A DNA stretch of 64,000 nucleotides from an uncultured virus (IMG/VR IMGVR_UViG_3300020166_000012) (lineage: Duplodnaviria; Heunggongvirae; Uroviricota; Caudoviricetes). A program made the translations under genes and the position numbers. The notes under the pieces were generated by a model. The model had not been told where the DNA came from. It saw only the letters and a list, made by a program, of their open reading frames with translations, and did no database searches. Below, in pieces: positions 15,569 through 51,654 of this stretch. Numbering within the stretch: position 1 is the first letter of the stretch; each line of letters opens with the position of its first letter. Where the stretch lies: IMG/VR virus record IMGVR_UViG_3300020166_000012; one strand, written 5' to 3'.

Positions 15569-15588
15569 TAAGAATTTAATATTTTTTA

Positions 15589-15618
15589 AAAAGCGGTGAA
15601 TTTCGGTTCATCGCTTTT
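15589..15618. terminator. bidirectional intrinsic terminator
   Basis: AAAAGCGGTGAA...TTCATCGCTTTT between convergent genes. Confidence 0.75.
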
Positions 15619-16399
15619 AATCTTTTAATTCGTACTTAAGGGCCGGACCGGATTCATATCCAATAATACTAATATCATCCGGAACAAAACTATAAATGTC
15701 TGTTTGATCAGTAAATTTAATTATTGGTTTAGCATCTAATATAGGGCGCGCAATTTGTTCTTTTGCATTATCAATATGCTCTTCATAGATATGGGCGTCG
15801 CCAACAATCATAGTAATTTTACCAGCTTTTTTATTAGATACTGATGCAAAACACATAAGCATTACAGCCGCAAAAACTGCATCACTTGGCACACCAATCA
15901 TCCAATCACCACTTCTTTGGACCCATAGCATATCTACAATACCATCGTGCTCATAAAATTGATAATTATGATGACAACATGGCAAATTCAAATCATTAAG
16001 ATTATCTGGGCGCCATCCACTAATAACCATGCGGCGGTCATGTGGATTATTAATAAGGCTATCAACCACAGCCGCCATTTGATCAACACCGTTAAAATCG
16101 CGCCATGCATTGCCGTAATCAACATTAATAGATCCATCGGCATTTGCCCACAGATCCCAGTAATTACAACCCCATTTACGGAAATCATCAATGTGTTTTG
16201 GTCCGCGGATCATTGCGGCATATTCACCAATAACACCAGCATAAAACATTTTACGGGTAGTTAGTAAAGGAAATTCTGTTTCTAAATCAAACTCAAGTGT
16301 TTTAAACGGAAGGCTGAGCGTAGTGCCATTACGCCCCTTCCGCTCATAACCATTATTTAGAATTTCTTCAGTAACTTTTAAAAACTGCGCTTCAAACAT
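15617..16399 (-). CDS. thymidylate synthase-family enzyme, probably dCMP-specific
   Basis: FPLLTTRK, DRR, LPCCH, QRSGDWMIGVPSD (Asp at the E. coli Asn177 position), DAHIY. Confidence 0.85.
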   Translation of the reverse strand: MFEAQFLKVTEEILNNGYERKGRNGTTLSLPFKTLEFDLETEFPLLTTRKMFYAGVIGEYAAMIRGPKHIDDFRKWGCNYWDLWANADGSINVDYGNAWRDFNGVDQMAAVVDSLINNPHDRRMVISGWRPDNLNDLNLPCCHHNYQFYEHDGIVDMLWVQRSGDWMIGVPSDAVFAAVMLMCFASVSNKKAGKITMIVGDAHIYEEHIDNAKEQIARPILDAKPIIKFTDQTDIYSFVPDDISIIGYESGPALKYELKD

Positions 16400-16740
16400 T
16401 AATCGATATGCTCCGGTTGATTTAGAAAATTACGACCCGGAATTTGACCATCCATTTCACCACGAAGATATGCAACAATAAATGACGAATAATTAATCAT
16501 ATCTTTAGCGCTATCTTCAAGGCTTTCAAAGTTAGGCTCATAGTCTTTTGATTGCATTGCTTCCATCACAGATTGAATGCGTAACATTTTCATGTGGCAC
16601 ATATCAAGTAGAGTAGCTACACCATTAGGGAAATAATCCGCTTGACGGATTCTGCTATTAGGGTTTTGATAATCATTACCTTTGCGTTCTTGTAGTTCGA
16701 TACATTCATGCAAAACTGCTACACTGGCGCTAACTGTCAT
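16399..16740 (-). CDS. DUF1599/Nmad1-like nucleotide-modification-associated protein
   Basis: KGNDY...KMLR...ESLEDSAKDMINY; stop/start overlap with the ThyA-like gene. Confidence 0.65.
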   Translation of the reverse strand: MTVSASVAVLHECIELQERKGNDYQNPNSRIRQADYFPNGVATLLDMCHMKMLRIQSVMEAMQSKDYEPNFESLEDSAKDMINYSSFIVAYLRGEMDGQIPGRNFLNQPEHID

Positions 16741-16800
16741 TATAAAGTTCTCCGTTAATATTTGATACTATTATAGCATATATTTTTACAATAGTAAACA

Positions 16801-17337
16801 TTAAAGTGGTGTTGGGTTTTTAAAAAAGTTTTCTATATTTACAACATATTTTGCAAATTTACCAGGAATCTTTCTTTTAATTATATCAGAGGCTTTTGCA
16901 ATACCAACAAAAGTGTGGGTAACAATATCCCCTTCTTGCAATAGAATAGCTGTATTACGGTTATCCTTATAGAAAAGAATATGTGACACAAGGCCGGCCT
17001 TTACTGCATCTTTGAAGCTGTCTTTAATTGGAAACCAAATTGAAGAAATACATTTATTATCGATGCGCATATCAGCAATATTATAATCTGGCCAAAAATT
17101 AGCTGCAGTCCCGTATTCTTCGACAGTAGTATCTTTCGGTTTTACAAGTTTATTGTGGAGGAGCCACCATTCCAATAGTTCATAATCAATTCCAAGTTCG
17201 CCCAATTCATAGTTAGATTCGCTTGCTTTTTTATTGCGGTACTCAATAAAATCTTTATCTACAACAATTTTAGCATTATTAATAAGAAGATTTAATTTAC
17301 AAGCAATTTCATTATAATCAATCAAAGTAGGGGACAT
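16801..17337 (-). CDS. hypothetical protein, possible PD-(D/E)XK nuclease
   Basis: Start reassigned to MSPTL; WPDY...IDNK pattern. Confidence 0.5.
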   Translation of the reverse strand: MSPTLIDYNEIACKLNLLINNAKIVVDKDFIEYRNKKASESNYELGELGIDYELLEWWLLHNKLVKPKDTTVEEYGTAANFWPDYNIADMRIDNKCISSIWFPIKDSFKDAVKAGLVSHILFYKDNRNTAILLQEGDIVTHTFVGIAKASDIIKRKIPGKFAKYVVNIENFFKNPTPL

Positions 17338-18109
17338 AGGAATACTCCACAATATCGTGTAAAATGTCTTCAAAATCTTGGAGGTTTACCATATTAGGCC
17401 CATCAGATGGAGCATTATCCGGATTAGGGTGCACCTCTAAGAAGAAGTTAGTAACACCCAAAGCAGCGGCAGCACGAGTAAGACCTGGAACGTAGTCACG
17501 ATTACCGCCAGACGAGCTGCCGTGTCCCCCAGGCTTCTGGCACGAGTGGGTAGCATCAAATACGATCGGTACCCCCAAGTTATCAAGCATGTACTGAAGG
17601 CCATTAAAATCGACCACAAGATTATTATACCCAAAACTAGTTCCCCTTTCTGTAATCCATACTTCTTTAGCGTCTTCTGTTTTGCTAAGGATGCCTTTTA
17701 TATCCCATGGCGCTAAAAACTGACCCTTTTTAATATTAATAATTTTATCAGTCATACAAGCTGCACTAATTAAATCTGTCTGACGACAAAGAAATGCCGG
17801 AATTTGAATTACATCAACTGCTTCATTGTATTTGTAAGCTATTGCAGCAATATCAGTTGTAGAATGCACATCTGTTAAAATTTTAACATTAACCGTTTCT
17901 TTTAATGACAAAAAGTCAAGCATTGTGGGTTCAAATCCCACACCACGTATACCATCAATACTTGTACGATTAGCTTTATCATAGCTAGCTTTAAAAATAT
18001 ATTCAACATCATATTTTGCACAAATATCAGCACAATGCTCAGCAATATCTAATGACATTGAAAGATTTTCATGTTGGCATGGACCGGCAATAATTCGTAA
18101 AGATTCCAT
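17318..18109 (-). CDS. kdsA: Kdo-8-phosphate synthase
   Basis: AGPC, KASYDKANRTS, TDVH, QIPAFLCRQTDL, KKGQF, ERG, DATH, SDG. Confidence 0.95.
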   Translation of the reverse strand: MESLRIIAGPCQHENLSMSLDIAEHCADICAKYDVEYIFKASYDKANRTSIDGIRGVGFEPTMLDFLSLKETVNVKILTDVHSTTDIAAIAYKYNEAVDVIQIPAFLCRQTDLISAACMTDKIINIKKGQFLAPWDIKGILSKTEDAKEVWITERGTSFGYNNLVVDFNGLQYMLDNLGVPIVFDATHSCQKPGGHGSSSGGNRDYVPGLTRAAAALGVTNFFLEVHPNPDNAPSDGPNMVNLQDFEDILHDIVEYSYVPYFD

Positions 18110-18111
18110 AA

Positions 18112-18249
18112 TTATAATTTATCCTGTAATTCTGCAATTCGAATATAAGAATTTTGCAATTGAGCTTGTAAATCATACACATTTTTTTCTAGAATTTGAA
18201 TTTTTATATTCATTTCAGCAAATGCTTTTTCAATATCTTTATTACTCAT
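18112..18249 (-). CDS. small coiled-coil protein (45 aa)
   Basis: MSNKDIEKAF...YIRIAELQDKL; GGAG RBS; not in ORF track. Confidence 0.55.
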   Translation of the reverse strand: MSNKDIEKAFAEMNIKIQILEKNVYDLQAQLQNSYIRIAELQDKL

Positions 18250-18315
18250 ATCAATCTCTCCATATTATATATTATATTTTACTATAATTATCAAAAAAAG
18301 TAAACAGCTATTTAA

Positions 18316-19410
18316 TTAATTCCACCCAATCTTTTCCCACGGAACATCTTTATTGCCAAAATGACCGTACGTACAGTTTTTACTATATTCATAAAAATTA
18401 AACATATCAAATCGGTCAATAATTCCTTTAGGGCTCAGATCAATTTCTTTACGGATAAACTTTTCAATACTTTTACTATAGCCATTGGATTCTACATAAA
18501 TGCTGATAGGTTGTTTAACTCCAATTGCATAGCTTAATTGAATATTACACCAATCAGCCATTTCATCTGCTACAACATTTTTAGCGAGCCAACGTGCCAT
18601 ATAAGCCGCGCTGCGATCTACTTTCGTGGGGTCTTTACCACTAAAAGCACCGCCGCCGTGGGGAGCAAAGCCCCCATAAGTATCAACAATAATCTTACGT
18701 CCAGTAACACCAGCATCCCCATCAGGGCCGCCAATAACAAAATTACCAGTAGGATTAATATGCCATACAGTATTTTCATCAATCATATCTCCTAAACCAC
18801 AATGCAATACGGCACCCCTTGCAAGGGTCCTTGCAGTTTGAATTTCATTAGCGGCATGTTGAGTACTAATAACAATTTGGTCTACCCGTTTAGCTATACC
18901 ACCTTCGTATTGTATACTAATTTGTGATTTTGCATCGGGGCCTAATATATTATCTAATAATCGAATTTCTTTCAATTCTTTAAGAATTTCATGCGCATAA
19001 TAAATAGGAGCCGGTAAATAGGCATCATTATCATTACAAGCATAGCCAAACATAATACCCTGATCCCCAGCCCCAAAATCATCGGTGCCTAATGCAATAT
19101 CAGCGCTTTGTGCATGGATTTCATTGTAAATTTTTAGATTATCCCAATGAAATCCCTCTTGTTCATATCCAATTTTTTTTACTGTATTACGAACAATTTC
19201 TTTAACTTCTTCGTTGCTCACATTAAAGTTTTTTACTTCACCGGCCAACGTTACCATATTAGTAGTTGTAAGAGTTTCAACAGCAACACGAGTTGTCTCA
19301 TCGCCGGCGCGCAATCCCGCATCAACAAGGGCGTCACTGATTTGGTCTGCTACTTTATCGGGGTGGCCGTCACTAACACTTTCACTAGTAAAAATATAAT
19401 TTTGATTCAT
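18316..19410 (-). CDS. metK: S-adenosylmethionine synthetase
   Basis: SESVSDGHPDK, GAGDQG, GGGAFSGKDPTKVDRS. Confidence 0.97.
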   Translation of the reverse strand: MNQNYIFTSESVSDGHPDKVADQISDALVDAGLRAGDETTRVAVETLTTTNMVTLAGEVKNFNVSNEEVKEIVRNTVKKIGYEQEGFHWDNLKIYNEIHAQSADIALGTDDFGAGDQGIMFGYACNDNDAYLPAPIYYAHEILKELKEIRLLDNILGPDAKSQISIQYEGGIAKRVDQIVISTQHAANEIQTARTLARGAVLHCGLGDMIDENTVWHINPTGNFVIGGPDGDAGVTGRKIIVDTYGGFAPHGGGAFSGKDPTKVDRSAAYMARWLAKNVVADEMADWCNIQLSYAIGVKQPISIYVESNGYSKSIEKFIRKEIDLSPKGIIDRFDMFNFYEYSKNCTYGHFGNKDVPWEKIGWN

Positions 19411-19412
19411 AA

Positions 19413-20228
19413 TTATTTCTTTTTTCTAAGTGGTAGGGCAATATCCACATCATCATCAATACATTGTTTACCATATTGTAATTCTACTATATGCGAAGCA
19501 ATTTTAAATGGATTACTTGCTTCATACCAAGATTTAGCTGGAATAACTTGTGGTGGATCTTGTGGAGTTAATATTTTTTTATCTAAACCCCTATGTAGGT
19601 TTAGCTGAGTTTGCCCCTGTATTTGTGTCCAAAGTTCACTTCTATTTTTATGGCGTTGATTCATTAATGACTTTTTAGGCAAAATCATTAATTCTCTTAA
19701 TTTATAATGTAATCCTGTTTTTGGATCCACACCTTCGGCTAATATTCTATACCAGCCCCATTCCTGTAAAGTTTTTGCGCTTCTCCATTCATCAAGAATT
19801 TCAAAAGATGAATTAACTACTTCTCTGCCCACATCAAAAACAAAGGTTACTTGGGGGTTATCAATAAGTGGTTTATTATCTTCGGGTGGTTTGCTATAAC
19901 CATTAGCACATATAATATCAGCTTTAGGATATTCTAGCATTATTTGTTGAATAAATTTAAGAGCAGTATCATCAGCATCCATATCAGAGGTAAAACAAAC
20001 TGCTTTATTTACAAAACCAAGTTCCGCAATAATAGCATGTCTATCTTCTATATCAAGAAACGGCCGACCCCGACGTCGGGTCAACCGCTCATTAGAATGA
20101 ATTCCAACAATAAGCATATCACCAAGGCGAGCTGCTTCTTTTAAGTATTTAATATGTCCTTTATGTAATGGGTCAAACCCACCTGTTGCAAGAACAATTT
20201 TCTTTTTTCTAAACGGTTTTATACGCAT
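19413..20228 (-). CDS. cytidylyltransferase-like plus C-terminal cupin fusion
   Basis: TGGFDPLHKGH; WGWY...SLMNQRH...RSELW...ELQYG (mannose-6-P isomerase-type cupin). Confidence 0.8.
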   Translation of the reverse strand: MRIKPFRKKKIVLATGGFDPLHKGHIKYLKEAARLGDMLIVGIHSNERLTRRRGRPFLDIEDRHAIIAELGFVNKAVCFTSDMDADDTALKFIQQIMLEYPKADIICANGYSKPPEDNKPLIDNPQVTFVFDVGREVVNSSFEILDEWRSAKTLQEWGWYRILAEGVDPKTGLHYKLRELMILPKKSLMNQRHKNRSELWTQIQGQTQLNLHRGLDKKILTPQDPPQVIPAKSWYEASNPFKIASHIVELQYGKQCIDDDVDIALPLRKKK

Positions 20229-21150
20229 ATTCTATAGCCCTGTCTGCTTCTACTTGCAAGTTTCTTGATTCATATATTCGGGCAGTATCGTTATCTAATT
20301 CTCTTATAATATCTGCAATTTCATATGATGTTATTGGGTATTGTCGTCTAATAGCGCTAATTGCTATTGAGCTCATAATCTTATATATCATTCTATATCG
20401 GCCGCTGCCATCAGTAAAAGCCATTGTACGGTATTCATCAATTAATTTCTTTGAAACAAACGGACAATCACGATAACCATCCCAATGAATATTACTTTTT
20501 TCTAATTGGTTAGCTCTAAAACTAACTATTTGTTTTTGTATTTCAGTCGGAAGCCTATCAATAAAATTTGCACTATGTTTTTTTTCTTCATACGGATGCT
20601 TGTCCATTAACCGATAGGGATTAATAGATGCGCCGTCAAGGTTAGAAAAAATAAAATTGTTACTATTAGCATAAGTTGCAGGCACGTAATACATACGAGA
20701 AAGGTCTTTAGTCTGCGTATCTCCGAGTCTGCCGATCTCTGTATTAAGGCTGTGCCAAAAATGTTTGATTCGTGAGCTTTCAACATGCGTTTCAAGAGGG
20801 AAGACGAGGCGAAACTTCGGTAAAGAATTAGTACTGCTAGCAGTGCTATAACACACGTACCGATAATGGCCGAAATTAGTATATAACTCATCTTTTAAGT
20901 TACCCTTAAACTCATGATCGTCAACATCAGCAGCAGCCCAACCTGCCCAAGCCAATACATTAGCATTGGCTCTAGTTGTGCCAGCCTGGTAAGTAGCTGG
21001 AGAAATAAGTTCTGCATCTTTTTTTCCATTTCGTTTAATATCAGACAATTTATATAAAAAGGATTCAAACGCATCAAAATCTTCGAAATCCATTTTTCGA
21101 TGCGTTGCGTTATCAAATATAGATTTAAAAATCGTAGAAGAAATATTCAT
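20209..21150 (-). CDS. AEP-like primase/primpol
   Basis: AADVDD, YSTASS, KFRLVFPL, DLSRMYYVP. Confidence 0.65.
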   Translation of the reverse strand: MNISSTIFKSIFDNATHRKMDFEDFDAFESFLYKLSDIKRNGKKDAELISPATYQAGTTRANANVLAWAGWAAADVDDHEFKGNLKDELYTNFGHYRYVCYSTASSTNSLPKFRLVFPLETHVESSRIKHFWHSLNTEIGRLGDTQTKDLSRMYYVPATYANSNNFIFSNLDGASINPYRLMDKHPYEEKKHSANFIDRLPTEIQKQIVSFRANQLEKSNIHWDGYRDCPFVSKKLIDEYRTMAFTDGSGRYRMIYKIMSSIAISAIRRQYPITSYEIADIIRELDNDTARIYESRNLQVEADRAIEYAYKTV

Positions 21151-21178
21151 GATATTATCTAATTCACCAATTATAAGT

Positions 21179-21598
21179 TTAGTCGTTAAGAAGTGCTTTG
21201 TTTAAATCGCCGTGATTACCTATATGACTCGGAGCTACCCACCCATCCGGCTTAATAAGGTCCGGAAGTCCGAATTTGTTCGGACGACCTTCTTTTACAC
21301 CTGGTGATTTAGCCATATTTGCTTCATACACTCGATCCCACGCGTCATTAGCATCAACACCAAATACATCAAGAGTACCAATAGCAAATACACACAAGTC
21401 AATAAGGCCATCAACAATTTCTTCTGGATCTTTTGCATCCAGCGCGTCAAGTGTTTCGTCTAGTTCTTCTTTGCACATCGACAAGCGGAATTTTAAATAT
21501 TTATCCATCAATTCTTTATTATTACAATTAGCAAGGAACCAATCCCTAACACCAAATTTATTATGCATCATATAGATGTCATTTACCCAGTCACTCAT
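21179..21598 (-). CDS. all-alpha NTP pyrophosphohydrolase (MazG/PRA-PH-like)
   Basis: EELDE...EIVDGLID, ANMAK, KPDGW. Confidence 0.85.
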   Translation of the reverse strand: MSDWVNDIYMMHNKFGVRDWFLANCNNKELMDKYLKFRLSMCKEELDETLDALDAKDPEEIVDGLIDLCVFAIGTLDVFGVDANDAWDRVYEANMAKSPGVKEGRPNKFGLPDLIKPDGWVAPSHIGNHGDLNKALLND

Positions 21599-21630
21599 AA
21601 TATATCCTCTTATTATAATTTATAATACTA

Positions 21631-22368
21631 TTATACCACACCCGCAAACCGATGTACATCAGAATTTTCAATTGCCCAAAGAATCCTTTGGGTATCTTGC
21701 CAGTCTTTTACATGAAATGCTTCTGAACCCGGACGATCCTTAATAGCGGCTTTAAGAGGGAAATCATTACCACCCCAATCCATACTATCTCCGAAGAAAT
21801 AAATGGGGCCACTTAACCGATCTGCTAACTGACGCTTATCAAAACCAATAGGGGCAATATCCAGACCGGTTTCGCCAGCAATTTGGGCAACTACACCTGC
21901 CCCAACAAACCGTTCATTAAAGGCAGAAGCAATTTGCAAACGATCACCGGTATGATAATCCCATTCTACATAAGCGGCTCTTTGTTCAAGATTACAATTT
22001 CTTCCAACAATACTAAAATTAACCAAGCCCGGCCGGTGATCAATGTGCAAGCCGGTTTTATGAAAAAATTTATTTTCCACAACTTGATTATTTAGCCAGT
22101 TTTGAATAGCTTTTGGAAGAACCCAATCCGAACTTTCAATTTCTATTCCTTTTTTCCAAATTGAATTACCAGAACAATTATGAATTTCCCTTACGCTATT
22201 ACATATTTTATCTCCGAGCTGCGCATATGTTTTAGCATAATCGGATCCAGTAATAAGATATACTGTATTATTTTTTACAAAGTTCAAGAAAAATGTTTTA
22301 AAGTCTTTATCCATTTTTTGACGGCTTGGCGTAAGCGTACCGTCCACATCAAAAACATAATTAATCAT
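21631..22368 (-). CDS. HAD IIB hydrolase, phosphomannomutase-like
   Basis: FDVDGTLT, TGSD, NFSIVGR, FFGD...GGND; start reassigned to MINY. Confidence 0.85.
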   Translation of the reverse strand: MINYVFDVDGTLTPSRQKMDKDFKTFFLNFVKNNTVYLITGSDYAKTYAQLGDKICNSVREIHNCSGNSIWKKGIEIESSDWVLPKAIQNWLNNQVVENKFFHKTGLHIDHRPGLVNFSIVGRNCNLEQRAAYVEWDYHTGDRLQIASAFNERFVGAGVVAQIAGETGLDIAPIGFDKRQLADRLSGPIYFFGDSMDWGGNDFPLKAAIKDRPGSEAFHVKDWQDTQRILWAIENSDVHRFAGVV

Positions 22369-24893
22369 TAGCCAAAGAAATCCTCTAGTGTTGCTTTTTC
22401 TTCTACACTCCATCCAATTGCATCTAAAATTGGGGTGAGTGGTTCAATAAAAGTTTTTTCAAATTGTTTATCATAATCCACATATTTGTGAAGATGAAGC
22501 TCTTCCGGCAAATATTCCGGAAATGCAATAACGTTTTCTTTAATAGGATTAGGTAAAGTAAGATAAGTGAATTTAATCTTTTCTCCATTTTTAATCAATT
22601 CAAACTTTTTACTTAAATCATTAGTTTTTATACAGTTATTATATAAAATGCTACCTCTTACATGAATAGGGGTACCTTTATTATATAAAGTAGTTTTATC
22701 TTGCCATTTTTTAATGTCAGAAACAGATCTGGGAAACGATACTTTTTCGGGTGGAAGGGATTTAAATACTTTCTTAAAATCGCTAATATATTTACGAGTT
22801 TCTTCTTCAGAACCATTAATAAGCACATAGAAAATTTCTCTAAATTTATCGCGGACAACTTCGGGTGTTGAAGATTTAATAGCTTCAATGCCCATAATCT
22901 TAAGCTTAGGAACAGAGTATTGCACACCCTCATTATTGTGAACATTTAAAATATACCGTTTTTTCGCAGTCCAAATGCCGCGATCAGCAATTGCTTCCCG
23001 TCCCATTTGCATTCTATTATCATAAGCATTCATTTTTTCAAATAAAGTATTATACGACTTTGCAAGGAATTTTTCAAATTGATCTCGACAAATCTGATCA
23101 ATAACTTTTACTGTGTCTTCAGTGCTAAGTTTTTGCTTAAAGCGATTAACTAATGGTCCAAAGTGAATATATACTGAGTCTGTATCAATAGCAATAACAT
23201 AATCAACATCTTCAGTTTTCATAATTTTATTCATTGCATCATTAACAGCTCTTTCAGCTGAACGAATTGCAAGTTGGCCAGATAAAGTAATACCTTCTGC
23301 AATATCCATATCAAAATATCTAAAGTATTGATTGCCTAGTGCACCATAAAGAGAGTTTAAAAGAATTTTAATAGCCATTTGGCGATTTTCAAGTTGGTTG
23401 ATTTTCTTTTCTAAATCAGCAGATTTATTCTTTTCATATTCAGATTGGGTAGCAAGCATTTCTTTTTTAACTTGAGAACGCTCATTATAATAATCAACAA
23501 TAATTTTAGGAATAACACCCTGTGATTTTTTACTATAGCAACTGCCATTTGCTGCAACAGATAAATCGGCTTCACGCTGGGTATCTCGAATTTCACCGCT
23601 TTGAAGATAATAGTCTACCCCGCTTTGACCTCGTAGCATTGGATCTTTAATCAAAGTTTCGGGTGACATATTATATTGCACAATAAGATTTGGATAAAGC
23701 GAATTCAAATCAAAGGAAACAACCCAATCGTACATGCCCGGAATAGGCTCTTTTACGTATCCACCTGGATATGGAAGCTTATGGCTATTTCTATTAGGAG
23801 GAACAATAATATTATCTTTTGCTAATTTGCGATAGATAATAGAATCCCATATAGCAGTAGTACCAAATGTATCAGAATAGTTAACACCACCCTTATATGC
23901 CATAGTCATAGCAAGAGTAATAAGATCCATTTTTTCATCGATACGGTCAACAAGTTCAACATCTTTAATATTATAATCAATAAATTTTTGATGATTTGCT
24001 TTGTATAAGCCATGAAGATTTCCATATTCTTCATATGAAATTTTATGTTCACCCAATACAACATGAGCAATATGGTCTAGTTTATAAGATTCTTGCGGAC
24101 CATATGAATAACCAAATTTTTGAAATAGTTCAATGTAGTCGAGTTGTTGTACACCCGCAATATCAAATGAAGTTGTTAATTTACCGCGGATATTAATTTG
24201 CCGCTTACCAACCACTCCCCACGGAGAAAGTTTTTTAGCAACAGCCTCGCCGGCAATGCGTGTAATGCGGTTGTAAATATATGGAATATCAAACATACGG
24301 ATATACCAGCCAGTAATAATATCTGGCGTGTTATTTCTCCAGTATTCCATAAACTGAGCAAGCAATTCAATTTCAGAATTACACTTGCGATACTGGATAA
24401 TTTTATCTTTATGTTCACTATTTTCTACATTCCAATCACCAAGACCCCAAGCATGATAAACATTACTTTGATTAGATTTTAATGCAATAGAAATAATTGG
24501 ATGTTCTGCAACATCCGGTTCTGGAAAGCCATCGTCCGAAGCAACTTCAATATCAAAATTGGAAATGTTAACGAGGTTTCTATCAAATGTAATATCATCC
24601 GGAAATTTTTCGGTAATAAATTGTTGAGCGTAATTAGTATTTCCATATACACTAAAGTTATCTACATCTTTATATTGAGCAACAAATTGATATGCGTCAT
24701 TCATATTATCAAATGTAATAGGCGCAACACGCACGCCGTCCAAAGAACGAAGTTCATCCTCTGGTTTAGTGCTTCTTATATAAAGAGTAGGTTTAAATTT
24801 ATGCTTAGTCTCAATCCGAGCACCGCTTTGATTAACTCCTCTATACAGAATTTGATTACCGTGTTTAAAAACTGATGTATAAAATGGTTTCAA
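22368..24893 (-). CDS. gp43: family B DNA polymerase gp43
   Basis: DIEV exo motif, [26 protein letters not shown]. Confidence 0.98.
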
Positions 24894-25297: not shown

Positions 25298-25510
25298 TTA
25301 TTTCGGGAAGTACTTGTTAAGAATTTCCATATGATCTTCATATTTTGCCATCTCCTCAAGTTCTTTTTCAATTGCGTCCATAACATCAGAGTGTTCGCCA
25401 ACTCCAACTGGATTTGTTAAATAGATTTCAATATTCATTTTATGTTTTTCAACATGTGCTTTAGCATGATCATATGCTGCATTAATCATTTGCAATCTTA
25501 GTGTTGTCAT
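25298..25510 (-). CDS. hypothetical protein
   Basis: 70 aa, NPVGVGEHSD. Confidence 0.7.
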   Translation of the reverse strand: MTTLRLQMINAAYDHAKAHVEKHKMNIEIYLTNPVGVGEHSDVMDAIEKELEEMAKYEDHMEILNKYFPK

Positions 25511-25872
25511 TGTTTTACTCCCATTGATTGTAGATATTCAATAATAACTTGGCGCCCAGATTCTTTCTTTTCTTTGAAATTCATCTTAGTACCTTTAACC
25601 AGTTTTTTAGAATTGGTTAGCCACTTATCTATAAGCTCAGGAGTCCATTGGGGGTTTTCTTCTGCCCATGCTAATAGTTTTTTACTATAACGATAATCTT
25701 CATTTGTTGCTACGCCACGATTCATAACATTCCATAGGTTTGGTCCAGCGCCGTTTTTTGCGCCTTCTTCAATACTATGACAAGATGCACATTTTCTAAA
25801 TGCTTTATCAGCATGCGCTGCGGAACCTGTTACGATAAAAAAAGCAATAAATGCTACTAAGTTTTTAGTCAT
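25507..25872 (-). CDS. class I cytochrome c (c2-like)
   Basis: Signal peptide, CASCH heme motif, GPNL, GTKM axial Met. Confidence 0.9.
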   Translation of the reverse strand: MTKNLVAFIAFFIVTGSAAHADKAFRKCASCHSIEEGAKNGAGPNLWNVMNRGVATNEDYRYSKKLLAWAEENPQWTPELIDKWLTNSKKLVKGTKMNFKEKKESGRQVIIEYLQSMGVKQ

Positions 25873-26141: not shown

Positions 26142-26402
26142 TTACACTCTCCCACGAATTTTGCCATGGTAATCACTAACATTTTGATTAGCTATGGTAT
26201 AAATATCACCACGACTAATACCAATGTCAGATAATTCAGCGTTTGAAAGTTTATTCAACTCCTGAATAGTTTTAGCAACATCTCTTGCCATACGGTACGA
26301 AGCGTGAAGCTTAGTTAAGTAATTGCTAACAACGCTAAAGAGTTGTACGACTGGGGTGATTACCGTCAGTTTCGGTAAGTAGTTGGTTATTGTGTGTGTC
26401 AT
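26142..26402 (-). CDS. DUF1127-family small protein
   Basis: ELNKLSNAELSDIGISRGDI signature. Confidence 0.85.
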   Translation of the reverse strand: MTHTITNYLPKLTVITPVVQLFSVVSNYLTKLHASYRMARDVAKTIQELNKLSNAELSDIGISRGDIYTIANQNVSDYHGKIRGRV

Positions 26403-26823
26403 TTTGACCCTCGTTTTTTCCAATTGAAATTATACGAGGACGCTGATTTTCTGGGACAACATATTTCAGTTCAACTGCTAGAATGCCATCTTGAATATCT
26501 GCTCCATGCACGTAAACGTGCTCAGACAGCCTAAAGGTGCGTTTAAATTTCTTCGTAGAAATACCACGGTGAATAAACTCACGACCCTTTGAAATGTGAT
26601 CCCCCATTACTGTTAATGTTCGGTCTTTGACCTCAATTGACAGTTCATCTTTTGAAAACCCCGCAACAGCCAATTCGATTAGATAATTATCTTCATCAGT
26701 TTTGATTATGTTGTGGGGTGGATAATGATCATTAGCATGTTTAGCAACATGATCAAGCTCATTAAATAAATGGTCAAAACCAATAAATGAGCCACGGGGG
26801 AATAAATTTTGAACGCCTGTCAT
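26335..26823 (-). CDS. small heat shock protein Hsp20 (IbpA-like)
   Basis: IGFDHLF, YPPHNI, ELAVAGF, HRGIS, DGIL; TATAAATA at 26882-26889. Confidence 0.93.
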   Translation of the reverse strand: MTGVQNLFPRGSFIGFDHLFNELDHVAKHANDHYPPHNIIKTDEDNYLIELAVAGFSKDELSIEVKDRTLTVMGDHISKGREFIHRGISTKKFKRTFRLSEHVYVHGADIQDGILAVELKYVVPENQRPRIISIGKNEGQNDTHNNQLLTETDGNHPSRTTL

Positions 26824-45795: not shown

Positions 45796-47775
45796 TTATG
45801 CTGCGCCAACAACTTCTTCAAACGAAACACCGGAGCGAACAGCTACGAAATTTAGAGTGATGAAGTTAATTGATCTTGCTGGTTTAATGAACATAGAGGC
45901 TACAAATTGGTTAGCATCAATGATCTCGCCGGTATTATTGGTTTCGTCGCATATAACTGAAAAATCAGTGATACCTCTTCTACCTTTAATATCTCTTAAT
46001 ACTGGCTCTACAATATTTAAGAATTCTGCACGAGTAAATTCGTCGTTGAATTCGAAAAGAATATTTTGCGACGCTGCCGCAATAGATCTTTCCAACAACA
46101 AGAAGAGTCTACGAACGTTGATTCTATCAAATGCGGAGGGTCTGTTTAAGTGAGTTTTATCACCAAATAACAATACACCATTTCCTGGAATATTTGCTAC
46201 AGGGTTGATTCCCGCTTTATACAATTCATCTCTTTCTGTTTTAGATGCATTGTATGATAGCCCGGTAACACCCAAATATTGCCCACGGCGTGTACCCGCT
46301 GGTGAATACCAAGCAGCAGCATTAAGATCTGTAGAAGCCATAATACCGGCTGTAGAAGATGCTGCTGGAATATAAATGTATTTATCGTTAAATTTATCAT
46401 AGACTTTTAGATAGTTGTTGTCAACTACTAAATATGAACTACGTGTAAAGGATACATTCGCAAGAATTGCCGCATTAATATTAGCTTTTGCTACACCAAC
46501 TACTGAGTTTCTATTTGGTGATGCAATAACAACGCAATCTTTTCTGCCATTAGTACCTTGTACTTTTGCCACCAAATCATTAACTACGGTTGTTTGATCA
46601 GCAGCAAGGGCCATTCCAGGTGCAATTAAGAAATCTACCAATGTAGTGTCTTTGTCTGCAAATTGGTCAAACCCACTAATATATTGTGCAGTACCCAATG
46701 CCCGGCTATCGCTACCATTTGTTAAAGAAATAGCTTTTGCAGCGCCTGTAAATGTTGCGTGCACAACACCGTTTACAGCTTGAGTTGGTGTAACAACACC
46801 TGGAATATTCGCCATATGAATAAATGCCGAACCTCTGTTAATCACATCTAAAATATAATTGCCAGAGCCATTTGATGTTTTAGCATTAGTTGCAACCGAA
46901 ACAAATGCAAAAGTTTCAAGAACTTTGCCTTTTGTACCAGAAATTACGCCGTCTTCATCAATTACTGCAACGTGTACTTCATCCGTACCAGTTGCGCCAA
47001 CATTACTAGCAAATGGTGATAATCCAGGAGCAGCATCAAATTCGCCTTTAAATGCCCAAGCAGCAAATCCGGTATCGGAGCATACTTCAACTTTTAATGA
47101 ATTGCCAAGTGCGCCAGGATATCTCGCGATAATTTCATGGCTGGCTGCTTTAAGCGTTGATTCTTGAACATCCCAATTATCATCATTTTTAACAAGCGGA
47201 ACTGATGTAGGGGTACGAGCAGTGTCGGCACCATAAGCATTTACAATATCAGACCCTTGGCCACCAGAAATAGTAATTGTTGGATTTGAATTGTATAAAA
47301 ATGGTGTTGCGCCCGGAGTTACTGTGAGCGCTGTAACCGCACCCCCAGAAATTGTAGCTGTTAATGTTGGTGTATCGCCGCTATCAGCAGCGGTAATTGT
47401 TACGGCAGGGGCAGTAACATAATCTTCGCCGCCTTCTGAAACTGTGAGTGTTAATACGAGTCCGTCAGAATCAACTGCAGCTGTTGCTGTTGCTTCAGTA
47501 CCGGCTTCGTATACTTCTCTAACTACCTGTAGGCTATTAGAGTATTTTAAAAAGTATGAAGCTGTATGAAAATCTACTGATGTTTCATCAGAAGGATTTC
47601 CGAAAACGCTTACTAGTGTGCCTTCGTTGCTTACAAGAATTGGCTGGTCAACTGGACCCCAACGAAAATTACCAACCATAGCTCCGGTAGATGAGCTAGC
47701 GTTTGGTACACCGTTGGTTAAGTCAATTTCTCTTGTAACAACTGCTGGTGACACAGATGGATTTCCTATGGCCAT
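45796..47775 (-). CDS. gp18: tail sheath protein gp18
   Basis: WGP, SPAG, FDRINVRRLF, FEFND, KPARSINFI; TATAAATA at 47841-47848. Confidence 0.96.
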   Translation of the reverse strand: MAIGNPSVSPAVVTREIDLTNGVPNASSSTGAMVGNFRWGPVDQPILVSNEGTLVSVFGNPSDETSVDFHTASYFLKYSNSLQVVREVYEAGTEATATAAVDSDGLVLTLTVSEGGEDYVTAPAVTITAADSGDTPTLTATISGGAVTALTVTPGATPFLYNSNPTITISGGQGSDIVNAYGADTARTPTSVPLVKNDDNWDVQESTLKAASHEIIARYPGALGNSLKVEVCSDTGFAAWAFKGEFDAAPGLSPFASNVGATGTDEVHVAVIDEDGVISGTKGKVLETFAFVSVATNAKTSNGSGNYILDVINRGSAFIHMANIPGVVTPTQAVNGVVHATFTGAAKAISLTNGSDSRALGTAQYISGFDQFADKDTTLVDFLIAPGMALAADQTTVVNDLVAKVQGTNGRKDCVVIASPNRNSVVGVAKANINAAILANVSFTRSSYLVVDNNYLKVYDKFNDKYIYIPAASSTAGIMASTDLNAAAWYSPAGTRRGQYLGVTGLSYNASKTERDELYKAGINPVANIPGNGVLLFGDKTHLNRPSAFDRINVRRLFLLLERSIAAASQNILFEFNDEFTRAEFLNIVEPVLRDIKGRRGITDFSVICDETNNTGEIIDANQFVASMFIKPARSINFITLNFVAVRSGVSFEEVVGAA

Positions 47776-47866
47776 GTCTTATTCCTTTGCAGAGAGTAAA
47801 ATTATATGTATTTCATAATAAGGTTATATTCAATTACTATTATTTATAAGAATTTAAGTTTAGACT

Positions 47867-48991
47867 TTACCAATCATTCTGGTGTTCTTCTATAGCCCAA
47901 CTAGAATGAAATGTAGTATCATCAATTACTGTAGATTGCCCATCATCGTAAAAACCGAATGGGACAATATCATCGTCTATTTCTTTCATTCGTTGTTCAA
48001 ACATCAAATCTTTAATACTAATATCAGTTAATTCATTAAAAAATGATGTTCCAACAAAATAAGAAAATAATATTAAATTCATTACTAAATCATCGTGATT
48101 TCCATCAGATGCTTCATATGATTGCCCCCGCGCCGTAAATGTAGAAATTTCTAATATGGTATTTTCATCCATAATATCTAATTTATTATTTTCCATTAAA
48201 TCTTTAAATGAAGAACAACCAATTCTTTTAACTTTGCGTGTCATTAACATACCAAGTGAACCAGACTTTACTGCCGATTCAACAAACATATTTTCATATT
48301 CTAAATCATGATATAAACCATTACATACAACTTGCCCAGCATCATTAGATTCTATAACAACCATTGCTTCATTATATGACATAGCATATTTATAAATAAT
48401 ATTTGGATATAATAATGGAGAAATATGATTATCTCTATATGTAGCTACCTGTTTAAATGGATTTACACTAACATCAATTATAGTAAATGTACTATAGTCT
48501 TGACCCCTACCTTTCGCAACATCTACTGTCATTATATATTGGTGATCTTTTTTAGATTCCTCATATACATAAACATTATCCCGAGTAACGTTTATTGGAT
48601 CTTTTCTTCTAAGAGATAACAAAACTTCGGCACCAATTAAAGTATCGCCCGTTCCAAAAAAAGTGTTATGTGATACAAACCCTTGGTCATGATTATACAC
48701 ACTTCCATTACCTACATTTACCGGATCATAAAAATAGTCACCTTCGTTTATTTTACTGATACGCGATACAATCTTACCTATGTTATCGCCTATGAGCACA
48801 TCCCGGGCATAGACTTCTTTATCATTAATAATGAATCTGTGATCAACCGCGCATTCAACAGCTGTATTGTCTTCAAAAATAAATTTTAAATATTTTTCAT
48901 GCCAATATCTTTTTACTCCATCAAACGATTGAAAACCGGATGGTGTTAAGATTTGTATATTGATGGGAGAACGTGTGTTCGTGTTTTCCAT
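47867..48991 (-). CDS. gp17: terminase large subunit C-part: C-intein (109 aa) plus nuclease-domain extein
   Basis: ...SHN|TFFGTG junction at 48665/48664; VDVAKGRGQDYS, ESND, HDDLVM. Confidence 0.92.
   Translation of the reverse strand: MENTNTRSPINIQILTPSGFQSFDGVKRYWHEKYLKFIFEDNTAVECAVDHRFIINDKEVYARDVLIGDNIGKIVSRISKINEGDYFYDPVNVGNGSVYNHDQGFVSHNTFFGTGDTLIGAEVLLSLRRKDPINVTRDNVYVYEESKKDHQYIMTVDVAKGRGQDYSTFTIIDVSVNPFKQVATYRDNHISPLLYPNIIYKYAMSYNEAMVVIESNDAGQVVCNGLYHDLEYENMFVESAVKSGSLGMLMTRKVKRIGCSSFKDLMENNKLDIMDENTILEISTFTARGQSYEASDGNHDDLVMNLILFSYFVGTSFFNELTDISIKDLMFEQRMKEIDDDIVPFGFYDDGQSTVIDDTTFHSSWAIEEHQNDW
48665..48991 (-). mobile_element. split intein C-fragment
   Basis: ILTPSGF, block B CAVDH, block F FYDP, terminal HN followed by Thr. 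Confidence 0.88.
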
Positions 48992-49656
48992 TCAATAATA
49001 CCCTTTAATGTGACATTTGAGCATTTATAGTGTTCTGCATATTTTCTTGCAAAATGTGATGATGGAGTTTTTTGAAGCCATCCTTTTTTCTTTGCATTTT
49101 CATTGTATTCTTTAATTTCTTTTTCACAATTTAATTTTTCTTTTTCATAATGAGTTCTAATTTCAATTACTTTTTTATCAGAAATTTTCGGTGGTTTCAA
49201 CCTTTTACCTTTTCTAATTTCTGAATGGTGTTGTCTTATTTTTGGATCCTTCCATTGATTCAAAGACAACTGTCTCATTTGTTCTGAGCCCCCGCCTCTT
49301 TTTTTAGCAGACTCACTCATTTTTTTCCGCGATTCTTCTGAGTACAAATATCCTTCAGTAGTAAAATTAGGAGAATTGTGCCCATGTCCTTTTCCAGACC
49401 AAGATTCATTTAAACCATTATTAAACGTGTCTAATTTACGAATCCAATATTCTTCACGTTCATTAATGTAATTTCTATCACTACTTTTTTCTAGTATTTC
49501 TACAGTAAATTCATCTTCGCGAAATCTTTTTGATCTTTTATGGTCTCCCATTCTCTGCTTCATACGTCTGTCTATCGTTATACCAACGTATTGCTGCGAG
49601 TCTGATTTCCTCGTCAACAGATAAACCAGATGTTGATCCTCGTTGGATACACTCAT
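48946..49656 (-). CDS. GIY-YIG homing endonuclease
   Basis: LVY...YVGIT, R...H, EEYWI, GLN, NUMOD3-like SEESRKKMS. Confidence 0.9.
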   Translation of the reverse strand: MSVSNEDQHLVYLLTRKSDSQQYVGITIDRRMKQRMGDHKRSKRFREDEFTVEILEKSSDRNYINEREEYWIRKLDTFNNGLNESWSGKGHGHNSPNFTTEGYLYSEESRKKMSESAKKRGGGSEQMRQLSLNQWKDPKIRQHHSEIRKGKRLKPPKISDKKVIEIRTHYEKEKLNCEKEIKEYNENAKKKGWLQKTPSSHFARKYAEHYKCSNVTLKGIIEWKTRTHVLPSIYKS

Positions 49657-49729
49657 ATAAATTTCCTATAGTTATTTCTGCTATATAGTTATTTATACAA
49701 ATAGTAATTTGGGAAGAACTTTTAAGGCA
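49538..49729 (-). mobile_element. split intein N-fragment (up to 63 aa)
   Basis: QEFGN|CLKSSSQITI...ITIGNLY block A. Confidence 0.85.
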
Positions 49730-50539
49730 ATTACCAAATTCTTGGTCAAATTGCAATTTAGATGTATTTGCAACTGTTTGTTTTTTCCATTCTTTATCTC
49801 GTCCAGGTACATCCCACCAGTCAACTCTAAACGGTTTATAATTATTAGTTTCTTGTACTGCGCCTTCCCATATTTTATGGAAAACATTGCCAATACCATT
49901 AGCAGTTGATGTAATAATAACTTTTGTATCTTTACCTGATGAAACCACTGGATATGTAGATGTATAAAATTCACTAGCTCTTTCAACAAAAGCAAACTCG
50001 TCTAAATACAATAATGAAACTGACATACCACGAATAGATGATCCACTTGTTGCCGCGGCAATAACCCGAGAGTTATTAGAAAATTCTATACTTCCTTTAT
50101 TTAATGCTTTACAGCCAGGCTGCAAAAAGAATGGTAAATTTTCTAGCATAAGAGTAATACGGCCAAGCATTTCGCGTGCCGTTGCGCCCTTATTAGCCAT
50201 TACTGCAATAGTTTTTTCACTATGAAAAATAGCAAACCAAAGAATATATGCTACAGAAGAAATAGATTTGCCTGATTGGCGACACGCTAAAACAATAGAA
50301 AAGCGATTATCATTAAAATGATTAAACATTTTTTCTTGATATGGATATAGCTCAAAGTTAACTAAACCACGATCTAAATGAATTACTTTGCAATAAGTTT
50401 TTGCAAAATAAACCGGGTCATACATACATTTAGCATATTCAGTAATTTCTTCTTTTGTAAATTGCTGAGTAACACCATCACGTTTTACATTTTGATTACC
50501 ATTATAAGAATCATTTAGTTGTTGATTCATTGCTATCAA
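49538..50539 (-). CDS. gp17: terminase large subunit N-part: ATPase extein plus N-intein
   Basis: LYPYQ, RQSGKS, YLDEFAF, TSTANG, QEF. Confidence 0.93.
   Translation of the reverse strand: MIAMNQQLNDSYNGNQNVKRDGVTQQFTKEEITEYAKCMYDPVYFAKTYCKVIHLDRGLVNFELYPYQEKMFNHFNDNRFSIVLACRQSGKSISSVAYILWFAIFHSEKTIAVMANKGATAREMLGRITLMLENLPFFLQPGCKALNKGSIEFSNNSRVIAAATSGSSIRGMSVSLLYLDEFAFVERASEFYTSTYPVVSSGKDTKVIITSTANGIGNVFHKIWEGAVQETNNYKPFRVDWWDVPGRDKEWKKQTVANTSKLQFDQEFGNCLKSSSQITICINNYIAEITIGNLYECIQRGSTSGLSVDEEIRLAAIRWYNDRQTYEAENGRP
49690..49697 (-). promoter_or_regulatory. T4 late promoter inside the N-intein coding region
   Basis: TATAAATA 33 nt upstream of the endonuclease ATG, AGGA RBS in between. Confidence 0.6.
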
Positions 50540-50888
50540 CTTTCACCATATCAATAATATCATTAGCTTTTGCAGCATCATGCAACATTCGCTGTAAATC
50601 TGTAGTAGAACCTAAAAATAAATTATTATTAGTAGTTCCGCCCTCAATGGATTTTTGATTGCCTTTTGAATTATATTCTTTTTTCTTTTTATGTAAATCC
50701 ATTAATCGATCATTTACATCAGAAATATTTTTTATCATCCCAGAAACAACCTCAAAGGCGCGAGGATGCTCTAATGCTTTTGCAACTTCCATCATTTCTT
50801 CAAGTGCATTATTACCCTTTTCAATTAGGTCATAATATGTTTTTCTGGAATATTCAAAATCATTATTTACATTATCAGAATCATTCAT
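50511..50888 (-). CDS. gp16: terminase small subunit gp16
   Basis: EHPRAFEV, NNNLFLGSTTDL. Confidence 0.92.
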   Translation of the reverse strand: MNDSDNVNNDFEYSRKTYYDLIEKGNNALEEMMEVAKALEHPRAFEVVSGMIKNISDVNDRLMDLHKKKKEYNSKGNQKSIEGGTTNNNLFLGSTTDLQRMLHDAAKANDIIDMVKVDSNESTTK

Positions 50889-51654
50889 TAAAATACTCTA
50901 TATCTTCATTAAATCCAAAGTCATTAGGTGGTGTTACATTTTCAGGAGATGGTGTAACAGTTATTCTTGCAATTTTTCCATCAGAATCTGCGGCAGTATC
51001 ACCAAGAATTCCAATATCTGTAATTGCTTCACGAATAAATCCTTGATTATATACTGGCCCATAAAAGAAAGTATTCATTTGAAAGTCTAATGTATATATA
51101 ATAGTTCTTCGAGTTTCCTGAGAGCCTTCAAAATCATCAGAAAATGTTACTGATTGCAAAGTAATAGGAATATCATGTTTAATATCGGTGAATTCACTAA
51201 ATGGTTTTACTGTAATACTATATTGAGGTGCAAAATATGGTATTATTTGTTCTACTATTTGTAAAGCATCATCTTGTGTTTTTGAATATACATTGAGTTG
51301 AAATGAAATCAAATATGGTACAGGTGCCAAAAATTTATTTTTATTAGTTGTACTATCAGTATAACGATAGTAATTATTCATTTTAGGTAATTTTCTTTCG
51401 GCATCATATGATATAGAAGTAATCTCAAAGGACATCCGTGGCAGCTTTAAAGCAACTTTAGTATCTGTTTCTAAATTATCAGTAGTTCTAATTCTTTCAA
51501 GAAACTTAGATCTTGGAGCATAAGCTAAAGGAACCTTGGTTTGGTTTAAAACTTTTCCATTAGCATCAGCCCGTATTACTCTAATATTATTGAAAATTGT
51601 ACCAAAAGTTGCAACAGTTTTTCGGAGTGTTTGATGATAAAAATATTGAAACAT
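50881..51654 (-). CDS. gp15: tail sheath stabilizer gp15
   Basis: VPLAYAP, LPRMSFE, EQIIPYF. Confidence 0.93.
   Translation of the reverse strand: MFQYFYHQTLRKTVATFGTIFNNIRVIRADANGKVLNQTKVPLAYAPRSKFLERIRTTDNLETDTKVALKLPRMSFEITSISYDAERKLPKMNNYYRYTDSTTNKNKFLAPVPYLISFQLNVYSKTQDDALQIVEQIIPYFAPQYSITVKPFSEFTDIKHDIPITLQSVTFSDDFEGSQETRRTIIYTLDFQMNTFFYGPVYNQGFIREAITDIGILGDTAADSDGKIARITVTPSPENVTPPNDFGFNEDIEYFNE

Follow-up and report, generated by a model that had tools for sequence, protein, structure and literature searches.

The fractured genes described in PMC2677866 follow a recurring layout in the sections considered here: one half of the host gene is joined to the N-terminal intein fragment (IntN), a free-standing GIY-YIG or Vsr-like gene follows, and the C-terminal fragment (IntC) is joined to the other host half; overlapping coding frames like those described below occur there too. 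One terminase locus in that set was split at an unusual point and had a 122-residue IntC. Among inteins of the large terminase subunit (TerL), the AceL, GOS and Cat inteins have Cys as the first residue after the intein (+1) and IntN fragments of 25, 37 and 30 amino acids (aa), respectively, and all three splice in vitro, according to the part of PMC11766414 consulted. A cultured T4-like virus, Aeromonas phage PX29 (GU396103, Straboviridae), encodes gp17A and gp17B in two open reading frames (ORFs) between gp16 and gp18, and its record annotates a 'putative N-intein' and a 'putative GIY-YIG endonuclease and C-intein'. Here, we analysed a stretch of 64,000 nucleotides (nt) from an uncultured virus of the Caudoviricetes (IMG/VR record IMGVR_UViG_3300020166_000012), referred to as the window, in which the TerL gene, gp17, is interrupted on the minus strand in a like arrangement. 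Very probably, gp17 is a fractured gene here, interrupted by a class-1 intein whose split is atypical, in which case packaging would rely on protein trans-splicing. An original prediction, made from the letters of the sequence alone, had placed the locus beside fractured genes and atypical TerL split inteins already known; its claim of novelty is overstated, given the PX29 annotation and the characterised AceL-, GOS- and Cat-TerL inteins.

The fractured gp17 lies between a gp16-like ORF (50511-50888) and gp18 and comprises three overlapping minus-strand ORFs: ORF1 at 49538-50539 (333 aa), a middle ORF at 48946-49656 (236 aa) and ORF3 at 47867-48991 (374 aa), with overlaps of 119 nt (49538-49656) and 46 nt (48946-48991). 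ORF1 matched the Pfam family Terminase_6N (PF03237; E value 2.3e-17, residues 83-267), ORF3 matched Terminase_6C (PF17289; E 1.6e-16) and the middle ORF matched GIY-YIG (PF01541; 37.3 bits, the family cut-off being 22.6; E 3.3e-9). These assignments confirm the original prediction of an ATPase half with IntN and an IntC with the nuclease half, separated by a GIY-YIG ORF in another frame that overlaps both. ORF1 reads ...QFDQEFGN and continues with CLKSSSQITICINN..., the Cys1 codon being 49729-49727; its order is ...QFDQEFGN-CLKSSSQITICINNYIAEITIGNLY-ECIQRG...GRP-stop. From Cys1 onwards it encodes 63 residues, the last 38 of them from DNA shared with the start of the GIY-YIG ORF. ORF3 begins MENTNTRSPINIQILTPSGF...; residue 109 completes the sequence ...GFVSHN, after which comes TFFGTGDTLIGAE...; its C-extein opens with TFFGTGDTL, and the Thr+1 codon is 48664-48662. 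The split thus falls between block A and block B, where ORF1 stops and ORF3 starts. The short IntN of the prediction stands as regards this position, but 63 aa are encoded, a 25-aa core and 38 more. Likewise, the predicted order of the exteins holds, and their lengths need a small correction: because the database copy of the ORF1 protein (P0045) is 330 aa long and fits an ATG at 50530, this codon is the likely start and the TTG at 50539 is probably not used, which would give an N-extein of 267 aa and a spliced product of 532 aa rather than 270 and 535 aa. The coordinates of all features are collected in Table 1.

The N-terminal 109 aa of ORF3 matched the Protein Data Bank (PDB) chain 6dsl_B ('Consensus engineered intein CatC') over residues 10-108 with an E value of 4.4e-15, and DnaE inteins appeared as weak further matches. 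In this alignment, ECAVDH of the window, its block B, stands opposite KCSDNH, and VSH stands opposite VSH at the C-terminus; the CatC residue at block-B position -3 is Ser. The codon of the block-B His (His51) is 48839-48841, and the terminal His-Asn is encoded at 48665-48670. The Hint fold looked for in the joined fragments is therefore indicated by homology to a solved structure, to which a structural check on a contiguous homologue (L031, discussed below) adds weak support. On sequence, the intein belongs to class 1: Cys1 follows the N-extein directly, and the VSHN end is followed by Thr+1 (His-Asn and then Cys, Ser or Thr).

The boundaries can be compared with an intein-free allele. Phage C48C1 (Kyanoviridae) aligned with the window at 68% nucleotide identity as two separate segments, with about 1.06 kb of the query left out between them. 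Its TerL, of 535 aa, reads ...QFDQEFGNTFFGTGNTL... (in a longer extract, ...TSSLQFDQEFGNTFFGTGNTLIE...), with the junction QEFGNTFFGTG, and the extein ends map to residues 267/268. This junction is identical to the predicted splice junction, so that removing 49729-48665 would restore a normal gp17, and since C48C1 has the same Thr, Thr+1 is a native extein residue. The comparison of the joined exteins with an intein-free gp17, proposed along with the prediction, thus gave an exact match.

Conservation among relatives points in the same direction. Of 63 candidates from a search with ORF3 residues 1-115, 43 proteins had E≤0.001; the window protein and 41 of these were aligned (n=42), leaving out P0002, which belongs to the window's cluster, and P0044, a distant form of 501 aa. 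The block-B His is present in all 42. The penultimate intein residue is His in 40 and Thr in two, and the last is Asn in 40 and Gln in the same two proteins, which end in TQ. At +1, we found Thr in 38 proteins, Ser in four and Cys in none. At position -3 of block B, 30 proteins have Ala, 11 have Ser and one has Thr, and position -4 is Thr in 21, Ser in 13, Cys in six and Ala in two; the predicted departure of CAVDH from the TxxH form is therefore real, but typical of the family. For IntN, ORF1 residues 262-333 retrieved 21 proteins (P0045, of the window's cluster, was left out of the alignments), and Cys1, L2, S6, I8, N13, I21, G22, L24 and Y25 are invariant in the 21 intein-carrying N-halves. 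Neither a second terminase nor another intein half or endonuclease copy was found in the window. The closest record (G001; 72.9 kb, 43% complete and possibly a fragment) likewise showed no second terminase and holds one copy each of the ORF3 and endonuclease homologues. An IntC profile run against IMG/VR matched 209 stretches, of which 111 encode relatives; all locus counts given here refer to the best 80 of these 111, numbered with the prefix L.

A metagenomic locus broken into three frames could be an artefact of assembly or sequencing, or a defective variant with a decaying gp17, and the source gives this some footing: the phage collection contains no isolate of this exact phage, its best DNA match reaching 68% identity. 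We compared assembled contigs from four runs of three studies, two from RNA (metatranscriptome) and two from DNA libraries. They span 47600-50900 with 0 inserted or deleted letters and with one to four substitutions, all at 50114-50417 in the ATPase part; a single contig (X17 record 25) spans the entire stretch with 0 gaps. Assembly error does not account for the frame breaks. In five IMG/VR contigs, the three ORFs are arranged identically, at 99-100% protein identity, and among the matches listed, 20 runs from 13 studies, all marine or estuarine, hold all or part of the stretch, although 11 of the 20 are marked as potential sources of the DNA itself and are hence not independent. A decaying gene is also at odds with the 32 of 80 related loci that keep all three ORFs open, with full-length endonuclease homologues of 39-75% identity in the same position, and we regard artefact and decay alike as exceedingly improbable. 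Next to no probability attaches either to a group I intron removed at the RNA level together with the GIY-YIG gene it would encode. Terminase introns do exist in other phages, such as ICP1 (PMC10448857, in the part considered), and the middle ORF has a match to the NCBIfam model TIGR01453 ('group I intron endonuclease') over residues 11-218, at 24.9 bits against a cut-off of 56. Rfam, however, gave 0 matches at E≤1 for 47500-50900, which leaves an RNA intron unsupported, and the flanks of the endonuclease gene are conserved intein blocks in frame with the exteins. The contigs of the four runs, including the two RNA libraries, carry the uninterrupted DNA form, none with a joint matching the removal of 49729-48665, and RNAalifold detected no conserved structure (consensus -4.07 kcal/mol, with 0 covarying or compensatory pairs). 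RNA splicing, named beforehand as a way in which the prediction could fail, thus found no backing in Rfam or in these contigs. Joints of low likeness, for example 48003-48290 and 48742-49199, were set aside as sequence of other organisms, having sides of ≤30 letters and occurring in single contigs.

The more serious competitor is a terminase that works in two pieces held together non-covalently, the intein halves serving as docking domains only. Such an assembly is reported for the split NrdA of phage Aeh1, whose parts are held together by domains of mobile-element origin. The Ala in place of the block-B Thr in 30 of the 42 relatives, the two relatives that end in TQ rather than HN, with a drift at catalytic positions in the wider clade, and the conserved IntN extension, which could serve as an affinity module, would all fit such an assembly, and fragmented phage enzymes can work unligated (PMC3045599, in the part considered). 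If the chemistry were dispensable, however, one would not expect Cys1 in 21 of 21 N-halves, the block-B His in 42 of 42 IntC proteins, His-Asn in 40 and a hydroxyl or thiol at +1 in all 42. The +1 residue and both flanks are, moreover, those of the intein-free allele, and splicing in vitro is on record for Cat-, AceL- and GOS-TerL, to which this intein is homologous (PMC11766414). Docking alone is improbable in our view. Trans-splicing is the best reading because the homology to CatC, the exact C48C1 junction and the conserved catalytic residues come together with no sign of an intron or of an assembly error; further support comes from the lack of a second terminase, from natural contiguous forms (L019 and L031) and from viable cultured phages with split gp17 inteins. 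The original claim that packaging depends on trans-splicing is, accordingly, well supported, the splicing itself being inferred.

Several observations nevertheless weigh against trans-splicing or add less to it than might be hoped. The canonical block-B Thr is Ala in this intein. No intein family of Pfam or NCBIfam was found on ORF1 or ORF3 at E≤1; these libraries miss the short atypical form, and the homology is drawn from the PDB and from relatives. Searched against PDB chains, IntN with its tail matched no intein, only designed helical-repeat proteins, which were rejected as spurious for want of a significant single stretch; the IntN of L059 gave no match. In the endonuclease, the catalytic domain was recognised but no DNA-binding domain, and Pfam gave no family at all on residues 78-236; the contigs from RNA libraries prove neither transcription nor the absence of a rare spliced RNA. 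A complex prediction for IntC with IntN scored 0.60, against 0.00 for the best of three controls, with contact agreement between runs of at least 73% and a partner predicted local distance difference test (pLDDT) of at least 59. Of 157 solved complexes, 116 passed the mark used, as did two of 215 mismatched pairs, and 18 of those 157 solved complexes, plus both passing mismatches, score ≤0.60; as a similar complex, 6DSL, has been solved, this weak support may reflect memory or likeness only. For the contiguous homologue L031, folded from alignment A8 with 100-aa extein anchors, the AlphaFold model had a mean pLDDT of 57.6 and a predicted template modelling score (pTM) of 0.35, with values below 50 in the linker (165-189) and the C-terminal blocks. 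A structure search with this model gave gp17 nuclease matches first, then 6dsl_B (E 0.024, probability 0.99), followed by RadA, VMA, PolII, DnaE, gp41-1 and Hedgehog Hint domains. For this clade as a whole, the splicing mechanism is deduced from sequence comparison.

Under trans-splicing, a class-1 intein would lie between the Asn and Thr of the linker QEFGN|TFFGTG and would have been broken after block A by the GIY-YIG gene. Two polypeptides would be made, the ATPase half with IntN (25-aa core and 38-aa extension) and IntC (109 aa) with the nuclease half, and IntN would dock into IntC to complete the Hint fold. Cys1 would then form a thioester, Thr+1 would attack it, and cyclisation of the terminal Asn would be followed by formation of the peptide bond, yielding a gp17 of 532-535 aa with the junction seen in intein-free relatives. 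The endonuclease would be translated from its own Shine-Dalgarno sequence and ATG, and perhaps transcribed from its own late promoter. Presumably, it would cut intein-less gp17 alleles during co-infection, which would lead to homing, with the cassette copied into them as a whole.

The window shares with Cat-, AceL- and GOS-TerL the host gene, a break just after block A, a short IntN, an IntC of about 104-115 aa, and Cys1, the block-B His and a terminal (S)HN. The length of its IntN core, 25 aa, equals that of the AceL-TerL IntN (PMC11766414), and its core ends in ...IGxLY, resembling the ...ELY of metagenomic relatives with Cys+1. It differs from all three in having Thr+1 instead of Cys+1 (the C-terminus of 6dsl_B reads ...VSHA|CESRG) and an encoded IntN of 63 aa with a conserved extension. 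The suggestion that Thr+1 marks a new allele is partly right: it distinguishes the clade from the characterised inteins, but Thr is the norm of this clade, in 38 of 42 proteins and 30 of 42 loci; the combination of Cys1 with Thr+1 is ordinary intein chemistry and occurs in 12% of inteins (PMC11766414, in the part considered). The insertion point may also be displaced. We mapped the extein ends on the intein-free TerL, taking the register from the equal QE-TLI spacing, with no gaps that would anchor a shift of ±1. The window and L048 are inserted at N267|T268, and seven Cys+1 loci (L054, L059, L065, L066, L071, L075 and L081) at 266|267, one residue upstream; L077, L080 and L084 gave ambiguous local alignments, and L056 is not among the placed loci. 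A shift of one residue relative to the Cys+1 clade is plausible, not certain, on this alignment, in which the window is compared with metagenomic Cys+1 relatives and not with AceL or GOS themselves.

Cultured phages allow further comparison. Related IntC sequences were found in 22 records of Vibrio, Aeromonas, Escherichia, Campylobacter and Desulfovibrio phages, and since these carry related split gp17 inteins, the kind is already known and present in viable phages. The PX29 IntC is related to that of the window (tblastn E 1e-4, 29.6% identity). PX29 differs, however, in having Cys+1 (THN|CCRFMG) and an IntN of 33 aa without the extension, and its gene 17B (L090:1817-3616) joins GIY-YIG, IntC and nuclease in one 600-aa ORF, unlike the separate overlapping endonuclease ORF of the window. 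Its insertion, QEH|C, lies by eye two residues upstream of the site in the window, and among the matches listed (best 15 of 19 records), none linked the PX29 endonuclease to that of the window. Vibrio phage VP-1 (MH363700, Ackermannviridae) also has a related IntC (E 4e-10) and a GIY-YIG endonuclease between IntN and IntC, which is 26.9% identical to the endonuclease of the window over 96% of the query. In VP-1 and in L044-L047, however, the endonuclease is in frame with the N-extein and IntN in one ORF, and the inteins of L044-L047 end in STQ, unlike the SHN of the window. A further difference is that the ATPase domain of VP-1 contains another intein, a contiguous one located behind the P-loop (SRQSGK|C...ILSHN|T). 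The terminase IntC in the supplement of PMC2677866 ends in ...GGILSHN|S and by eye resembles this P-loop-site intein of VP-1 and not that of the window; the terminase intein described there in 2009 probably occupies a different insertion site. What sets the clade of the window apart is modest: Thr or Ser at +1 with a probably shifted insertion point, a conserved dual-coded IntN extension, and endonuclease signals within IntN.

The 80 loci include two groups. Group A (L007-L048, 42 loci) has N-exteins that end in QE[F/Y][G/L]N, as in the window, and an IntN core with extension; +1 is Thr in 30, Ser in 11 and Cys in one, and the 32 loci with a full-length endonuclease homologue at the same place belong here (32/42). 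Group B (L049-L086, 38 loci) comprises more distant terminases with Cys+1 in 38 of 38 and an IntN of about 30 aa. In group A, L019 (2068-4095) encodes a cis mini-intein within a single TerL ORF of 676 aa and no longer has the endonuclease or the greater part of the extension, and L031 (2451-4610) encodes a single TerL ORF of 720 aa that keeps the extension and the first 32 endonuclease codons and whose intein ends in SSN; both carry Terminase_6N and Terminase_6C. The endonuclease has gone from L032-L035 as well, with the intein still split; their ORFs overlap by about 20-40 nt in different frames (467-1465 and 1426-2532 in L032), and +1 is Ser. In L044-L047, the N-extein, IntN and a SegE-like GIY-YIG endonuclease with NUMOD3 form one ORF (Pfam SegE_GIY-YIG and NUMOD3 on L044), and the intein ends in ...PSTQ|T, with a terminal Gln and no penultimate His. 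Such endonuclease-fused IntN ORFs, of 525-739 aa, occur in L044 (1927-3501), L046, L047 and VP-1 (L089, 334-2550). The intervening ORFs of group B include HNH_3 (L077 and L080), GIY-YIG (L081) and a weak DUF559/MTES_1575-like match (L085), with no Pfam family at E≤0.01 on 16 of the 24 scanned. Group B also has contiguous forms (L056-58 and L073) and split forms with almost no spacer (L050, L053, L074 and L075). As in VP-1 (L089:334-2550), the terminase of L056 (2118-4571) is interrupted by a second intein, located in its ATPase domain. Across relatives, the endonuclease is thus free, fused to IntN or fused to IntC, and the loci record stages in an intein and endonuclease life cycle: free-standing, IntN-fused, IntC-fused, deleted from an intein that is still split, and deleted from one that has healed to form a cis mini-intein.

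A new detail is the way in which intein and endonuclease share DNA. The endonuclease ATG (49656) falls in intein codons Tyr25-Glu26, and ORF1 continues for 38 codons past Tyr25 in a frame one base ahead of that of the endonuclease. The conserved part of this extension is intein G35-Y50 (49580-49627), and its distal 13 aa are not conserved. A simple diversity count was made over 11 distinct loci with a homologous endonuclease start. Third-position diversity was 0.27 in endonuclease codons 10-27 (the GIY...YVGIT core), where many third positions, which are first codon positions in the ORF1 frame, are invariant. The same DNA in the ORF1 frame reads GL(S/P)x(D/E)EE(I/V)RLxAIRWY (motif GLSxxEEIRLxAIRWY), and its changes are conservative (V/I/L/F, D/E and I/V). 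In codons 28-39, third-position diversity was 0.55 and identity in the ORF1 frame drops to 0.34, the level of a non-coding frame; in codons 41-80, where ORF1 has already ended (0.35), diversity was 0.50. Past IRWY, the ORF1-frame stops lie at differing places among loci. This pattern is as predicted by selection on both frames over intein residues 35-50, and it argues for the last 13 residues being nothing more than run-on. On the RNAalifold result given above and a single-sequence z-score of -1.73, RNA structure was rejected as the main cause of the silent-site conservation, though it may contribute.

The extension is kept in the endonuclease-less L031, L032-35 and P0043 and lost in L019, so that it is not indispensable in cis; what remains of the overlap in L031 and L032 is conserved in both frames, and the endonuclease-less loci are therefore uninformative on the two-frame question. 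In the L031 model, it forms a helix (142-149) and a strand (152-154) at a pLDDT of about 74-80, compared with the overall mean of 57.6. The extension may have a function; in trans, it might raise the affinity of the fragments or act as an assembly chaperone.

Expression signals for the endonuclease also appear to lie within IntN codons. Among the 17 listed loci with the same ATG start as the window, 16 have a Shine-Dalgarno-like TAGGNGATTTRTATG, and TTGGGGATTTTTATG is found in L036. Further upstream, the motif TATAAATA, which resembles a T4-type late promoter, occurs at 49690-49697, where the intein codons are Cys-Ile-Asn-Asn and the endonuclease ATG is 33 nt away. It is kept at -41 in nine of the 11 loci with a homologous start, including with a change of the preceding codon from TGT to CTT. 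The coding (minus) strand of the window has 16 copies of TATAAATA, of which 14 are intergenic (13 at 10-72 nt and one at 192 nt upstream of ORF starts); the copy in IntN is one of the two intragenic ones. Intergenic DNA makes up 10% of the window, and a naive binomial P for this placement is about 1e-12, an overstated figure since the AT-richness of intergenic DNA is ignored. Over the whole window, the 20 copies found do not exceed chance expectation (16.7), and it is the placement alone that is non-random. The copies upstream of ORF starts, at minus-strand positions including 2333, 24926, 26882, 28252, 37946, 39207, 42769, 47841, 53359, 54725, 56527, 60800 and 62524 among others, look like the T4-type late-promoter set of this phage, and the copy within the intein may act as a promoter for the endonuclease gene.

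Together, these data make it possible, though we hold this tentatively and with some doubt, that intein and endonuclease are interlocked here in a manner unlike the AceL, GOS and Cat descriptions: a functional IntN module of 16-25 aa would be under two-frame selection, and a late promoter, a Shine-Dalgarno sequence and a start codon would lie in IntN codons. In that case, neither partner would easily be lost without harming the other. Losses of the endonuclease occur nonetheless, and most leave the extension behind.

As for the endonuclease itself, a same-strand free-standing ORF between the split-intein halves corresponds to the fractured-gene layout. The GIY-YIG catalytic domain covers residues 9-77 (49426-49632). 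In 12 homologues, the VYLL...YVGIT motifs are retained along with Arg, His, Glu and Asn residues further downstream, which we presume to be catalytic by analogy with I-TevI. Weak relatives are annotated as homing endonucleases in phages. At its 3′ end, the 46-nt overlap encodes the N-terminal peptide of ORF3: codons 1-9 (48965-48991) read MENTNTRS... and lie upstream of the part that aligns with CatC. A start of this type (ME[ND]xNxxS) is found in about one third of relatives, and the others begin with M(K/Q)ILTP.

Table 1. Features of the fractured gp17 locus in the window (positions of the 64,000-nt stretch)
Feature	Position	Strand	Basis
gp17/TerL N-extein (ATPase half), ending ...QFDQEFGN	49730..50539	-	ORF; PF03237; alignment with intein-free C48C1 TerL
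Intein-N core, Cys1-Tyr25, CLKSSSQITICINNYIAEITIGNLY, block A	49655..49729	-	Invariant residues in 21 N-halves
Intein-N C-terminal extension, 38 aa, ECIQRGSTSGLSVDEEIRLAAIRWYNDRQTYEAENGRP	49541..49654	-	Same DNA as GIY-YIG codons 1-39
TATAAATA, T4-type late-promoter-like motif in intein-N codons C-I-N-N	49690..49697	-	Placement; 9/11 loci
Shine-Dalgarno-like AGGAAA in intein-N codons I-G-N	49662..49667	-	5 nt before ATG 49656-49654
Free-standing GIY-YIG homing endonuclease gene (putative), 236 aa	48946..49656	-	PF01541; full-length homologues at the same place in 32/80 loci
Intein-C, 109 aa, blocks B, F and G	48665..48991	-	Match to PDB 6dsl_B (CatC); conserved residues
Thr+1 codon (ACT), first C-extein residue, presumed nucleophile	48662..48664	-	Same Thr in the intein-free allele
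gp17/TerL C-extein (nuclease/RNase-H-like half, 265 aa) and stop	47867..48664	-	PF17289; C48C1 TerL alignment

The window belongs to a marine T4-like myovirus, with gp23, gp20, gp19, gp18, gp15, a neck protein, gp43, a gp41-like helicase, UvsX, UvsW and UvsY, a clamp and its loader, gp46/47-like proteins and RegA, among others, nearly all on the minus strand. Apart from this core, 7383-22413 holds a run of sugar-nucleotide and cofactor genes that is unusual in a phage core: a UDP-glucose dehydrogenase-like protein, an NAD-dependent epimerase, two cytidylyltransferases, a KdsA-like DAHP_synth_1 protein, a SAM synthetase, a phosphomannomutase and a mannose-6-phosphate isomerase-like protein. Beyond 22413, a cytochrome c (25510-25872) and an Hsp20 (26338-26823) are encoded.

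For protein engineering, a peptide-sized IntN with Thr instead of Cys at the junction would be a modest gain for the AceL/Cat toolbox if splicing is fast; since Cys1 remains necessary, the intein cannot be called cysteine-less. Of all its features, only the dual-coded IntN extension might teach something new on the assembly of atypical split inteins. For the viruses themselves, the locus would provide an example, in full genomic context, of an essential packaging motor that depends on trans-splicing in an abundant marine T4-like lineage.

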